Assembly: GCA_963727625.1 (NCBI GenBank)
Contig: CAVSHR010000006.1
Location: forward strand, 224,001 to 288,000
DNA: 64,000 bases
Direction: 5' to 3'
Origin: an uncultured delta proteobacterium
Lineage (GTDB): Bacteria; Desulfobacterota; Binatia; UBA9968
Shown: in pieces, positions 2,039 to 16,771 of the stretch
Position numbering within the stretch: the stretch's first letter is position 1
Layout of the letters: every line of letters begins with the position of its first letter
The notes under the pieces: model-generated
Seen by the model: the letters and a program-made list of their open reading frames with translations, nothing else
Told to the model about the DNA's origin: nothing
Databases searched by the model: none
Position numbers and translations under genes: made by a program

Positions 2039-2196
2039 GACGGCAAGAGTAAGAGACCGGGCGTAAGGCAAGTAATGCAGGATCTCTCGAGGAATTTAAT
2101 CCTGAGCCGATTCGACTTTGCGTCGGGTAAACTTCGCCGAAGGCCTCAAAAATGTTTTTGGCTTTGCCAGTGGAAGCACCCCGAAGGGAAAAAATA

Positions 2197-3171
2197 ATGC
2201 GACAGTGGTTCATCTTCTTCGTACTGCTCGCCGTTAGCGTTTCACGAACTTGCGATGTGATTGCAGCCGAGCGCGCCCTGCCGGTCAGGATCGGCGTGCT
2301 TACGGAGGGATTTGGGCCGACCACCGGTGCAGTAGGCCTGCGGGATGGGCTTAAGGGACTTGGTTACCGGGAGGATAAAGATTTCGTGATCGGCGTCCGA
2401 TTTACTCAGGGCGATGCCTTGGCGCTTCCCGAGGCGGTTAGGAAACTTATCCGGCAAGGAGTGGATATTCTGATCACAGAGGGACGGAGCGCAGCAAAGG
2501 CAGCTCAACTGGAAACCAAAGTATTGCCGATCGTCTTTGCCGGAGGTGGCGATCCGGTCGGGTTCGGTCTGATTCGGAGCTTTGCCCGTCCTGGAACTAA
2601 TATTACGGGTGTAAGCGATCTCGATATTGAGTTGGGCCCCAAGCGCCTTGAGATTTTTAAGGAGATGATCCCCGAGCTAAATCGTGTGTTATTCCCCTAC
2701 GATGCGACCGATGCCTACAGCGTTTCCGAGGCGAAGGCGTATCGCGATGCCGCGCGTCGGCTCAGAATCGCGCTGATTGAGAAAGAGCTGCGCACTGAGG
2801 ATGAGGCAAAATCGGTCCTGGGCAAGTTAAGAAAAGGCGACATCCACGGCATCCTGTCACCACGTCCGATGACAGCGAATATTCCTGGATACGTCCGCGA
2901 GGCGGGTTCCCGGTCTTCCATACCGACGATGTTTGCCGCGACTTTTTTTGCGGAGAATGGTGGCCTCGCAAGTTACACTCCCAATTCCTACGAATCCGGC
3001 CGAATGGCGGCGCGGCTGGTGGACAAGATTCTAAAAGGCGAGAGTCCCGGTAAAATCCCCGTGGAGGTGAACAACAAGATCGAACTGGTTATCAACCTGA
3101 AGGTTGCGAAGGCATTGGGGATCAAGATCGCCCCGCAGGCGTTGTATAAGGCAAACCGAGTCATCCGATGA
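2197..3171 (+). CDS. ABC-type substrate-binding protein (ABC_sub_bind-like), no cognate permease nearby
   Basis: Signal-peptide-like N-terminus; motifs DPVGFGLIRSFARPGTNITG and ELVINLKVAKALGI typical of this SBP family. Confidence 0.85.
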   Translation: MRQWFIFFVLLAVSVSRTCDVIAAERALPVRIGVLTEGFGPTTGAVGLRDGLKGLGYREDKDFVIGVRFTQGDALALPEAVRKLIRQGVDILITEGRSAAKAAQLETKVLPIVFAGGGDPVGFGLIRSFARPGTNITGVSDLDIELGPKRLEIFKEMIPELNRVLFPYDATDAYSVSEAKAYRDAARRLRIALIEKELRTEDEAKSVLGKLRKGDIHGILSPRPMTANIPGYVREAGSRSSIPTMFAATFFAENGGLASYTPNSYESGRMAARLVDKILKGESPGKIPVEVNNKIELVINLKVAKALGIKIAPQALYKANRVIR

Positions 3172-3237
3172 CTCACTGACATAGCGCAGAATGAAAATTG
3201 CAAAATGCAGACTGCCAAGCAGAGAGGAGACCAAGAG

Positions 3238-3795
3238 ATGAGTAATTCAATGGCGTATCGGAAGGTTTTGTTTTTCTTGATCCTGCTCCTGGCCGGCGGG
3301 CTAGGTATGGCCGGTGCCGCTTGGGCCATTGAGGTGGGCGACCGGGCGCCCGACTTCAAGCTGCCGGCGACCACCGGGGTGGATATTTCGCTGAGCGAGT
3401 TCCGAGGCAAGAAATGGGTGCTGGTCGAGTTCTATGGCGCGGATTTCCAGCCCACCTGAGCGGCGAACCTGACGGCCAGGAAGGCCGACTACAACCGGTT
3501 CCAGGCCCTGGGTGTCCAGAACCTTGGCATCAGCGCCAATGCGACCTTCTCGCAGCAGACCTTCGCCGACTCGCTAAAGCTGCCGTTTCCACTGCTCAGC
3601 GACTTTCAGGAGCGCAAGGTCATCCGCAGTTACGGTGTGCTTAACGACAAGCTTATGATCGCGAATAGGTCGTTTTTTCTTATCGACCCGCAAGGAATCA
3701 TCCGCAAGAAATGGATCATCAATAATCCAGCGGTGACGGTTGTCTATAGCCCCACTTTGCTCAAGGATATCGAGGAGATCGTCGGCAAGAAATAA
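3238..3795 (+). CDS. Exported AhpC/TSA (peroxiredoxin-like) protein, probable selenoprotein (in-frame TGA 3457-3459 = Sec)
   Basis: RBS AGGAGA before ATG 3238. VGDRAPDFKL...FYGADFQPT-TGA, then the same frame continues AANLTARKADYNRFQALGVQNLGIS...LPFPLLSD...RSFFLIDPQGIIR to TAA 3793-3795. TGA sits at the peroxidatic Cys position. Confidence 0.88.
3465..3501 (+). promoter_or_regulatory. Candidate bacterial SECIS element
   Basis: Just 3' of the UGA: lower stem GAACC/GGTTC, upper stem CGGCC/GGCCG, apical loop AGGAA starting 19 nt after UGA. Confidence 0.65.
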
Positions 3796-3887
3796 ATTGG
3801 CTCGCGGGCTATCGACGCGGGCTCGTCAGCACGTGCTGGCGCGTCCCTGGGATAGTGGGGCCCGATTCGACGATACGAAACGATAAA

Positions 3888-4451
3888 ATGAGCAATCGAA
3901 CGCGGCAGGAAATCGCAGGATTTCTAATTGTGATCGTGGCGATCCTCGGCACTCCGCCGGAGAATCACGCCGCGGCGCCGGATATGTTGGGGAAACTCCA
4001 TCTCTCCACCTACCCTCGCGTCACAAAACCGCCAAAGTTCAATGGCACCACTATCGATGGCCGGAAGGTATCTCTGGTTTCTCTGGTCGGCAAGGTTGTT
4101 GTCGTCAATTTCTGGGCGACCTGGTGCCAAGAATGCCGACTTGAGATGCCCATGTTCGAGCAGATGCACCGCGAGTTCGCGGTGCATGGACTCAGTGTTA
4201 TCGGGATCAATGCTCGCGAAGGGCCAGTGGCCATCCGTGCATACGCCAAAGAGCTCCGCTTAACTTTTCCCCTGTTGCTCGATCCAAAGGGAGAGATCAA
4301 TGCGGCTTACGGAGTCGTCGGTCTACCGGCTACTTTTCTCATTGGTCGCGACAGACGCGCGGTTGCGCGGGCCGTCGGACCGAGAGAGTGGACGAGCAAC
4401 CCCGCCATCGTCATTATCAGAACGCTCCTGAACGAGCCAATGGACCGATAA
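3888..4451 (+). CDS. TlpA/ResA-family thiol-disulfide oxidoreductase, exported
   Basis: VVNFWATWCQECRLEMP; YGVVGLPATFLI; hydrophobic N-terminus. Confidence 0.88.
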   Translation: MSNRTRQEIAGFLIVIVAILGTPPENHAAAPDMLGKLHLSTYPRVTKPPKFNGTTIDGRKVSLVSLVGKVVVVNFWATWCQECRLEMPMFEQMHREFAVHGLSVIGINAREGPVAIRAYAKELRLTFPLLLDPKGEINAAYGVVGLPATFLIGRDRRAVARAVGPREWTSNPAIVIIRTLLNEPMDR

Positions 4452-4478
4452 GAGCCACCCACTCTGGAGGTAACCAAC

Positions 4479-4844
4479 ATGGAAATGAAAAAAATTCTCG
4501 TGGTCGATGACACGGATTGGAACCGCGACCTGCTGGTTCAGCTTCTGGAGGAAGACTACGAGATACTTCAGGCCGTTGACGGTGCCGAAGGCGTGAGAAT
4601 AACGGAGCAGAGCAAGCCCGATCTGATCCTCATGGATCTCGGCATGCCGGTCATGGATGGATGGGAAGCGAGCCGGAGAATCAAAGCCGACCCCGGGCTC
4701 AAGCATATTCCGATTATCGCGGTTACGTCCCACGCCATGGTCGGCGACGAGATCGAGGCCCGCAAGGCCGGCTGCGACGATTACCTGCCCAAGCCGATCG
4801 ATGAAGATTTGCTGCTGCAAAAGATCAAAAAATTTCTCGAATAA
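4479..4844 (+). CDS. Single-domain response regulator (DivK/CheY-like)
   Basis: ILVVDD, PDLILMD, AVTSHAM, YLPKP; RBS GGAGG. Confidence 0.92.
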   Translation: MEMKKILVVDDTDWNRDLLVQLLEEDYEILQAVDGAEGVRITEQSKPDLILMDLGMPVMDGWEASRRIKADPGLKHIPIIAVTSHAMVGDEIEARKAGCDDYLPKPIDEDLLLQKIKKFLE

Positions 4845-12969: not shown

Positions 12970-13533
12970 ATGACGATCCGATTCCTTTACCGCCTCCGGT
13001 ATGTGATTGTGCTTACTGCGAGTCTGTTGACGCTTGATGTTGCGCCGCTGGGGAGTCAGTCGAGAGTCGATTACAAAGCGGTACCGATTCTGCAGCCGAT
13101 GAAGGACCGGTCCCCCACGCCGGATTTTAGTTTGACCACGCCTGAGGAAAAAAAAATTTCACTCAAGGATTTCCGCGGTAAAGTTGTTTTGCTGAATTTC
13201 TGGGCGAGCTGGTGCGTGCCCTGTCGCGAAGAAATGCCGGCAATGGAAAAACTCTATCAGGAGTATAAAGGAAGCAATTTTGTCGTCTTGGCCGTGGCCG
13301 TAAAGGACCGTAAACAAGACGCCGTCGATTTCGTCAAGGAGCTTAAAATTACTTATCCCATTGCGCTCGATCCCGACGCCCAAGTGGGCAATCTGTACGG
13401 CGCTTGGGGATTACCCGCGACCTATTTGATCGGCGCAAAAGGCGAAGGCTTGGCGCGCGGCTGGGGACCGGCGGAGTGGTACAGCCAGGCGGCGCGCAAA
13501 TTGATTAAAGATCTGGTCGACGGCAAACGATGA
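12970..13533 (+). CDS. TlpA/ResA-family thiol-disulfide oxidoreductase
   Basis: [17 protein letters not shown]; signal/anchor N-terminus; overlaps ccdA start. Confidence 0.9.
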
Positions 13534-14267
13534 CGGACATCAACGTTTTTGTCGCCTTTGCCGCGGGCGTTTTTTCGTTTCTCTCGCCCTGTGTTTTGCC
13601 GCTAATTCCCTCCTATCTTTCTTTCGTCTCGGGCGTGTCGCTGGATGAAATGCGCAACGATCAAGCCCGCTCTCGGGTGCGCTGGCGGGTGGTTTTAAAC
13701 TCCATCGCGTTCATCATTGGCTTTTCTCTGGTGTTCGTGTCTCTCGGCGCTTCGGCAAGTTTTCTCGGCGGGCTTTTTTTGGGCTACCGCAACGTCATTC
13801 GCATTTTCGGCGGCGTGTTCATACTGCTCGTCGGCCTCTACCTCGTCGGACTTTTCAAGATCGCGGCGCTCGATCGCTATTTGCAATTTAATTTGAAGGA
13901 TAAGCCGGCCGGCTATTTCGGTTCGATCCTGGTCGGCATAACCTTCGCCGTGGCCTGGACTCCCTGCGTCGGGCCGATCCTCGGAGCCACGCTGGCGCTC
14001 GCCAGTACGGCGGGTGAAGTGGGCCGCGGTACGCTGCTGTTGTCCAGCTACGCGGCAGGGTTGGCGCTGCCGTTTTTCTTGAGCGCCTTGGCAATTAATT
14101 CCTTCTTCCAATTTTCGCAGAAACTGCGCCGCTACGTTCAAGCCATCCACGTCGTCGGTGGTCTGCTCTTGATCATCGTCGGCATTCTTTTGATTACCGA
14201 CTACATGACGCTGCTCAATGCTTACGCCTTGCGCTTTACGCCGCAATGGTTGCTGCAACGGCTTTAA
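13530..14267 (+). CDS. ccdA: Cytochrome c biogenesis protein CcdA (DsbD-type membrane domain)
   Basis: SFLSPCVLPLIPSY and WTPCVGPILG motifs; multiple TM segments. Confidence 0.92.
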   Translation: MTDINVFVAFAAGVFSFLSPCVLPLIPSYLSFVSGVSLDEMRNDQARSRVRWRVVLNSIAFIIGFSLVFVSLGASASFLGGLFLGYRNVIRIFGGVFILLVGLYLVGLFKIAALDRYLQFNLKDKPAGYFGSILVGITFAVAWTPCVGPILGATLALASTAGEVGRGTLLLSSYAAGLALPFFLSALAINSFFQFSQKLRRYVQAIHVVGGLLLIIVGILLITDYMTLLNAYALRFTPQWLLQRL

Positions 14268-16444: not shown

Positions 16445-16771
16445 ATGGGCAAGATTACCGAGGTTGGAGACAACAATTTCGATGCCGAAGTATTAAAGTC
16501 GTCGGTGCCGGTGCTGGTCGATTTCTGGGCGCCCTGGTGCGGCCCGTGCAAATCCATCGCGCCGATCGTCGAAGAGATCGCCGGCGAATACGAAGGCAAG
16601 CTCAAAGTGACGAAGCTGAACGTCGACGATCACCCGGCCACCGCGTCGCGCTACGGCATCCGTGGCATTCCCAATTTGATTATTCTCAAAGGCGGCGCGG
16701 TCAAAGAGCAGATCGTCGGCGCCGTGGCGAAGGCGAAACTCGTCAGCGCCATCGAAAAAGCTTTGCAGTAA
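16445..16771 (+). CDS. trxA: Thioredoxin
   Basis: DFWAPWCGPCK; RBS AAGGAGG. Confidence 0.96.
   Translation: MGKITEVGDNNFDAEVLKSSVPVLVDFWAPWCGPCKSIAPIVEEIAGEYEGKLKVTKLNVDDHPATASRYGIRGIPNLIILKGGAVKEQIVGAVAKAKLVSAIEKALQ

Follow-up and report, generated by a model that had tools for sequence, protein, structure and literature searches.

We analysed a 64,000-nucleotide stretch of DNA from an uncultured delta proteobacterium (source genome G000, contig 6, positions 224001-288000; hereafter the window), in which a gene at 3238-3795 is predicted to encode an exported selenoprotein with the AhpC/TSA fold and a single selenocysteine (Sec). All features given here by window coordinates lie on the forward strand. 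Under genetic code table 11, the open reading frame (ORF) that begins at ATG 3238 is closed by the TGA at 3457-3459, which is the sole in-frame TGA of 3238-3795. Beyond it the frame continues for exactly 111 sense codons (3460-3792) before a TAA at 3793-3795, and when TGA is read as Sec (U), the translation is 185 residues long, contains a single U (U74) and lacks Cys. An earlier note on this DNA had described the ORF stopping at TGA 3457, the 111 further in-frame codons and a protein devoid of Cys; translation confirmed each of these points. A Shine-Dalgarno-like AGGAG, read from the sequence at 3224-3228, lies 9 nt before ATG 3238, and hence we favour this start over an upstream ATG at 3205. 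A search for sequencing runs that contain the locus listed none of RNA, and contigs built from the reads were short pieces of DNA, none of which spans the whole of 3238-3795; one such contig, from a relative (run X8), covers 3331-3494 and has no difference listed at 3457-3459. The evidence for the assignment, set out below, comes from a Pfam match, alignment to solved structures, homologues, a structural model and codon differences.

The codon at 3457-3459 corresponds to TGA or Cys in homologues. When 61 related genomes were searched in six frames, 60 gave matches. Exactly one TGA is present in 45 of the 46 top-ranking rows (E ≤ 2.2e-25), and only the row from the closest relative (G003, 72% identity) differs, having no stop and carrying Cys at the column. 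We translated 37 loci, of which 31 fall into three groups of exported, TGA-containing paralogues (groups 1-3, with the 3238-3795 gene in group 1), and in these 31 loci the same column is U in 30 and C in one (G003). Two of the translated rows, G005 (locus L036) and G035 (locus L029), are from unpublished genomes; these also entered a 15-row hairpin set used below, and were kept out of the 20-gene hairpin set and the set of named metagenome-assembled genomes (MAGs). TGA occupies the column in all seven further loci from named MAGs, which are labelled Candidatus Eisenbacteria (three loci), Syntrophobacteraceae, a 'Betaproteobacteria' RIFCSP bin, Candidatus Rokuibacteriota and one uncultured bacterium. 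The 120 best public proteins include 95 full-length homologues, with C at the column in 69, W in 24, S in one and G in one; we interpret the Trp residues as TGA codons translated as Trp by gene callers. The remaining 25 are C-terminal fragments, and the eight that we inspected start 1-6 residues past the column. The occurrence of Cys or TGA at this position had been proposed as a check on the Sec reading, and it was seen alike in the related genomes, the MAG loci and the public proteins.

Decay of the frame downstream of the TGA in close relatives would have refuted the earlier proposal; instead, the frame is conserved. We counted differences over the 111 downstream codons in ungapped comparisons, dropping three loci with indels (L066, L027 and L067). 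Against L061, there are 11, 3 and 44 differences at codon positions 1, 2 and 3, respectively (40 codons changed synonymously, 12 non-synonymously); the corresponding counts are 6, 7 and 31 against L062, and 23, 13 and 43 against the Cys form L023. The concentration of differences at third codon positions indicates that purifying selection acts on this part of the frame.

A hairpin resembling a selenocysteine insertion sequence (SECIS) lies at 3471-3489, separated from the UGA by an 11-nt spacer. It consists of five G-C pairs (3473-3477 with 3483-3487) closing a loop of sequence AGGAA, with one extra pair outside an A-A mismatch, and its predicted folding energy (ΔG −9.3 kcal/mol, z −4.29) was reached by none of 200 shuffled sequences. 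The published limits for bacterial SECIS elements, as given in PMC13188914, are a loop of 3-9 nt, a stem of 4-16 bp, a UGA-to-loop distance of 16-37 nt, a G within the first two loop positions and an MFE (minimum free energy) of at most −7.5. The hairpin lies within these limits, with a 5-nt loop, 18 nt from UGA to loop, a stem of five base pairs plus one, and a G at loop position 2 that is followed by another G. Counting from the U of the UGA, the conserved stem pairs nucleotides 15-21 with 27-33 around the 5-nt loop. Across 20 Sec genes (two paralogue groups, 18 distinct rows, unpublished genomes excluded), 94.4% of the cells at these positions are paired, as against 9.5-54.8% when the partners are slid. 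Two-sided changes occur at three of the seven pairs, and none of 500 shuffles matched the observed covariation or pairing score. The 15-row set, which includes the two unpublished rows, gave the same outcome for both pairing and covariation. Columns 18 and 30 both fall on the third base of a codon (Ser TCG/TCA and Asp GAC/GAT), and in three genes they switch jointly from G-C to A-U, a change that is hard to attribute to protein constraints. RNAalifold, which was not given the structure beforehand, recovered the inner five pairs.

Relatives of the gene were compared at the equivalent place. The Cys orthologue folds there with only −3.6 kcal/mol (n = 1 Cys-form DNA sequence), and group 3 paralogues have a near-invariant GUCCG-GUU-CGGAC. 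The earlier note had proposed that a two-stem hairpin follows the UGA; a hairpin 3' of the UGA is indeed present, as the single conserved stem-loop at 3471-3489, and it is the two-stem form that did not hold. That form is the MFE fold of a single sequence (3457-3500), its stability is not significant (z −1.41, equalled by 20 of 200 shuffles) and it is absent from relatives. We therefore rejected it as an RNA element. When the 64 nt that follow the UGA were folded in a single piece, the result was uninformative (z −0.18).

The source genome encodes a complete Sec machinery, the lack of which would have counted against the earlier proposal. Genes for SelA, SelB and SelD, which score 607.5, 397.5 and 377 bits, respectively, and thus all exceed curated cut-offs, lie next to one another on contig 5, and a tRNA-Sec was found both by a score above its curated cut-off (76.7 bits) and by ARAGORN, which called it as tRNA-SeC with anticodon TCA. 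The selD gene (C5:718540-719466), located directly after selA-selB, is itself a selenoprotein gene with one TGA. TGA also serves as an ordinary stop in this genome, since the binding-protein gene upstream of 3238-3795 (2152-3171) terminates at TGA 3169-3171, with a Pfam match that extends to residue 337 of 339. An alternative genetic code for UGA was rejected because this neighbouring gene stops at TGA. We conclude from these comparisons that 3238-3795 is very probably a genuine selenoprotein gene, in which UGA 3457-3459 specifies Sec.

The encoded protein has the fold of a peroxiredoxin. The Pfam AhpC-TSA domain matches residues 33-157 (E 1.4e-34, 119.1 bits), spanning the TGA, in agreement with the earlier proposal that AhpC/TSA-like sequence continues past it. 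An AlphaFold2 model built from a 96-row alignment has a mean predicted local distance difference test (pLDDT) score of 89.0 and a predicted template modelling (pTM) score of 0.81; pLDDT falls below 50 only at residues 1-3 and 11-27. The top Foldseek matches to the model are Bcp4 (3hjp; root-mean-square deviation (rmsd) 1.6 Å), AhpE (5c04; rmsd 1.5 Å) and Prx1-type enzymes, and the predicted nucleophile sits at the start of helix 2 of the AhpC/TSA thioredoxin-type fold. We located the active-site loop, G67-A-D-F-Q71-P-T-U74 (3436-3459), by alignment to 2ywn, 5enu and 2cx3 and from column counts in the family. With the two residues before it, this stretch reads F65-Y-G67, and in a HMMER alignment with the Bcp structure 2ywn (FYPAAFTQVC), G67 takes the place of Pro, Q71 that of Thr and U74 that of the peroxidatic Cys. 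The same alignment bears out the earlier observation that the loop GADFQPT-U has neither the Pro nor the Thr/Ser. A further active-site residue is retained: R144 (codon at 3667-3669) aligns with the conserved peroxiredoxin Arg in 2ywn (AKRAVFVID) and 2cx3, and is conserved in at least 90% of the family alignment. Y66, N77, L78, R81, Q106 and W159 are invariant in that alignment, with N77 and R81 positioned on the helix after the Sec.

The altered loop is a property of the group as a whole. In 96 group-1 rows, including the query, the Pro column contains G (72), A (11), M (8), I (4) or H (1), and never Pro. The Thr column contains A (28), S (22), V (19), D (8), M (7), I (5), Q (3), F (2), T (1) or G (1), such that T or S is found in 23 of the 96 rows. 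Because Cys forms of the subfamily likewise have no Pro/Thr, the divergent loop is not a consequence of the use of Sec. One Cys is present after residue 30 in 72 of the rows, none in 23 and two in one; since 95 of 96 rows thus have at most one Cys in this region, there appears to be no resolving Cys, and the 1-Sec status proposed earlier is supported by this inspection. Group 1 has the motif EFYG(A/S/G)(D/A)FxP(T/V/A)U, group 2 FYVLDFTPTU and group 3 NFYVLDFSPTU. Thus, Pro is gone from all three groups, whereas T or S is kept in groups 2 and 3 and not in group 1. Alongside them, the related genomes encode canonical forms (FYPLDWTPTU and FYPKDDTPGU) and also a UxxC form.

We scanned cluster representatives of 1.84 billion proteins, obtaining 9331 matches at E ≤ 0.001 and six at E ≤ 1e-30. 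Of the best 150 representatives, 136 align over the motif and 94 of these have the canonical P...T/S...C arrangement. The non-canonical motif is limited to the few top clusters, indicating that the subfamily is small and clearly delimited. None of the NCBIfam models was matched at its cut-off; the best was PrxU (NF040737), and membership in that family was rejected on score (84.8 bits, compared with a cut-off of 270). Judged by these alignments, the 3238-3795 protein is a member of a compact subfamily whose peroxidatic residue is interchangeably Cys or Sec, in which the Arg is kept, the Pro and Thr are gone and a resolving Cys is absent.

The leader of the protein suggests that it leaves the cytoplasm. 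Residues 1-30 (3238-3327) precede the point at which solved cytoplasmic peroxiredoxins start, and on inspection they contain R8-K9, a hydrophobic core and a predicted cleavage site, A-W-A|I-E-V-G-D. All 15 group-1 N-termini have Ala at −1 and A, S, V, C or L at −3, just before a domain start of the form (I/L/V)-x-(V/I)-G. By inspection, the leader contains neither a lipobox Cys nor a twin-Arg motif. The signal-peptide-like leader and secretion proposed earlier are supported by these features, and a Sec-type signal peptide, with export of the product to the periplasm, is likely.

A gene for a thiol:disulfide oxidoreductase of the TlpA/ResA/DsbE type, with an N-terminal membrane anchor, follows at 3888-4451. 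Its active-site motif is W-C91-Q-E-C94, numbered from GTG 3855, although ATG 3888 is the likelier start; the product scores below every curated cut-off. The TlpA-like neighbours share an invariant FWA(T/S)WCxxCRxEMP motif and cis-Pro region. In the related-genome set, a TlpA-like gene is next in all six group-1 loci with downstream DNA (L028 and L036 end at a contig edge), and it is next in six of the seven named-MAG loci; overall, 12 of 13 loci have this arrangement, including the Cys-form locus. We found no terminator-like site on the forward strand between the peroxiredoxin-like and TlpA-like genes. About 10 kb downstream of 3238-3795, a gene for a second TlpA-like CxxC protein (WCVPC, 12970-13533) overlaps the start of a gene for a CcdA-like membrane electron transporter of 245 aa (13530-14267; DsbD_TM, 60.4 bits), the only such match found in the genome. 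A cytoplasmic thioredoxin (WCGPC) is encoded at 16445-16771 and is given here for context only. At a group-2 locus in another genome (G041, L033:866-1387, forward strand), the adjoining TlpA-like gene is itself a selenoprotein gene (FWATW-U-PDC, a UxxC form), and hence in some genomes Sec is used by the TlpA-like protein as well as by its peroxiredoxin-like neighbour.

The locus matches the logic of an envelope pathway of Caulobacter crescentus in which, according to PMC3322552, TlpA receives electrons from ScsB and in turn reduces PprX, an exported peroxiredoxin. We therefore propose a similar cycle, whose chemistry and protein contacts we infer from gene context and analogy, the components and their gene order being observed. 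By the comparisons above, SelB and tRNA-Sec very probably decode UGA 3457-3459 as Sec, directed by the hairpin at 3471-3489, and the likely signal peptide would send the 185-residue protein to the periplasm. There, an oxidant, most likely a hydroperoxide, would convert the U74 selenolate to a selenenic acid. This acid would be attacked by the first Cys in the WCxxC motif of the membrane-anchored TlpA-like protein to form a selenenyl-sulfide, which the second Cys would resolve. Finally, the CcdA-like transporter would re-reduce the TlpA-like protein with electrons from cytoplasmic thioredoxin. We regard this peroxidase cycle, with the TlpA-like protein as partner, as somewhat probable, and we put the full explanation, an exported Sec protein working in a peroxidase cycle through the TlpA-like and CcdA-like proteins, at a probability of roughly 0.6.

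PprX is described in that paper as an exported BCP/PrxQ-like protein reduced by a TlpA-type protein that is fed by a DsbD-family transporter; in the window, likewise, a protein bearing a probable signal peptide is encoded next to a TlpA-like protein, together with a CcdA-like transporter, with the partnership read from gene order alone. However, PprX has the canonical PXXXTXXC motif and two Cys, whereas the 3238-3795 protein has Sec, no Pro/Thr and no resolving residue, and the transporter is a short CcdA-like protein (245 aa) rather than ScsB. The best sequence and fold matches are to BCP/PrxQ and AhpE structures (2ywn/4g2e, 3hjp, 3drn and 1xvw/5c04; E 8e-20 to 2ywn), and AhpE is a 1-Cys enzyme, comparable to the single-Sec protein described here. 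These proteins are nonetheless cytoplasmic and Cys-based, with canonical PxxxTxxC, and are only 26-34% identical to the 3238-3795 protein.

Selenocysteine-containing peroxiredoxins are themselves familiar. In the selenoproteome surveys, 'Prx, PF00578, TxxU' is among the commonest bacterial selenoprotein families (GOS table), and a 2026 review describes PxxxTxxU as highly conserved. Such proteins, including PrxU of Eubacterium acidaminophilum (NF040737), as portrayed in these sources, share with the 3238-3795 protein the AhpC/TSA fold, a peroxidatic Sec, a UGA followed by a hairpin, and the coexistence of Sec and Cys forms. In place of their TxxU or PxxxTxxU, the 3238-3795 protein has GxxxQxxU; it also has a probable signal peptide and lacks a second Cys, and its subfamily never has the Pro. 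A different set of proteins, the 'Prx-like thiol:disulfide oxidoreductase' (PF00578, UxxC) and Caulobacter PrxL, are likewise exported redox proteins with the AhpC/TSA fold, and have no peroxiredoxin signature; UxxC forms also occur in the related genomes (L056 and the L033 neighbour). The UxxC/CxxC proteins have a dithiol-type motif, whereas the 3238-3795 protein has a single peroxidatic redox residue and keeps the peroxiredoxin Arg. Our literature search, with supplements outside its scope, returned no description, in the text accessible for each source, of an exported 1-Sec/1-Cys subfamily that has no Pro/Thr and is paired with a TlpA-like gene. As far as these sources go, Sec peroxiredoxins and exported peroxiredoxins are each known; the locus joins both, and fails two of the four defining residues.

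Other explanations concern either the decoding of the UGA or the chemistry of the product. If translation really ended at the TGA, we would be dealing with a pseudogene or a split gene that yields a 73-residue peptide, everything past the TGA being left untranslated; table 11 does end the frame there, and public gene callers mostly give fragments. Yet a single TGA at one column recurs in dozens of genes with several phylum-level MAG labels, the 111 downstream codons have an excess of third-position differences, 69 homologues have Cys at the column, and a conserved, covarying hairpin follows, all of which make a stop extremely improbable. We also consider it very improbable that UGA is read as Trp, Gly or Cys, through a different code or SelB-independent read-through. 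The W found at the column in 24 database homologues shows that some pipelines chose a code in which TGA is Trp, but TGA is a normal stop in the source genome (gene 2152-3171), the Sec machinery is complete, the hairpin lies at SECIS distance, and the column alternates with Cys, which is the signature of Sec. Some observations temper the reading of an exported Sec peroxidase at the level of the gene: the hairpin stem lies within coding sequence and a good part of its covariation is between paralogue groups; the loss of the hairpin in Cys forms is seen in a single DNA sequence; an Rfam scan of 3000-4600 at E ≤ 10 left the hairpin unmatched, giving only a chance snoRNA match on the opposite strand; export was judged by eye; and at the named-MAG locus L061 (82% identity) the next 2.7 kb downstream contain no TlpA-like gene. 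On the side of chemistry, two of the four peroxiredoxin residues termed 'absolutely conserved' in PMC3322552, the Pro and the Thr, are missing, in Cys forms too, and fast peroxide reduction is hence not assured.

The same exported selenoprotein might instead not be a peroxidase: it could be a selenol/thiol-disulfide oxidoreductase or relay for a specific envelope substrate, or a reductase for a non-peroxide oxidant, with the TlpA-like protein as either electron donor or acceptor. This is possible, and we rate it as distinctly less probable than the peroxidase cycle. The earlier note had suggested that the chemistry may differ from that of canonical peroxiredoxins. In its favour, the Pro column never contains Pro and the Thr column has T or S in only 23 of 96 rows; the non-canonical motif is confined to a few top clusters, while 94 of the 136 aligned representatives are canonical; N77 and R81, on the helix after the Sec, are invariant features specific to the family; and the exported PrxL, which is without the conserved residues, has no detectable peroxidase activity according to PMC3322552, a result that also weighs against a peroxidase. 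Conversely, the protein is a peroxiredoxin in its fold, in where its nucleophile sits and in its Arg, T or S at the Thr column in sister groups 2 and 3 suggests gradual drift within a peroxidase lineage, and the conserved neighbourhood encodes no candidate alternative substrate. A bolder version holds that the subfamily is a separate catalytic class on the peroxiredoxin fold, relying on the Arg and N77/R81 without a Pro-Thr network, acting on an oxidant or substrate other than the usual hydroperoxide and served by a dedicated TlpA-like module; we consider this unlikely. The catalytic Gln of glutathione peroxidases hydrogen-bonds the selenolate, and the Gln at the Thr column in the sub-lineage of the window (GADFQPTU) may do the same.

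TGA-containing relatives are abundant in the source genome. Six of its nine peroxiredoxin-like matches, including the 3238-3795 gene, have one in-frame TGA; the other five are at C6:220823-221326, C4:84896-85318, C12:539579-540049, C9:339039-339449 and C4:922179-922580, the first of which lies about 2.7 kb before the start of the window. A further, weak match contains two TGA codons and one TAG. The motifs of the TGA-containing genes range from canonical PxxxTxxU to UxxC, suggesting a large selenoproteome of periplasmic and thioredoxin-fold proteins. In a related genome, two TGA-containing paralogues lie in tandem on one contig (G021:C177:1032-1526 and 1709-2158).

The locus also exposes an annotation problem, in that 24 entries with Trp at the Sec position and 25 fragments are found among the 120 best public homologues. 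The subfamily breaks the 'absolutely conserved' Pro-Thr rule and yet retains Cys/Sec exchange at the catalytic position. It provides a natural experiment on the extent to which a peroxiredoxin requires its activation network when the nucleophile is a selenolate. For uncultured bacteria of soil and groundwater, our analysis points to a periplasmic, selenium-dependent redox module, with electrons that would pass from a CcdA-like transporter to a TlpA-like protein and on to the Sec protein.

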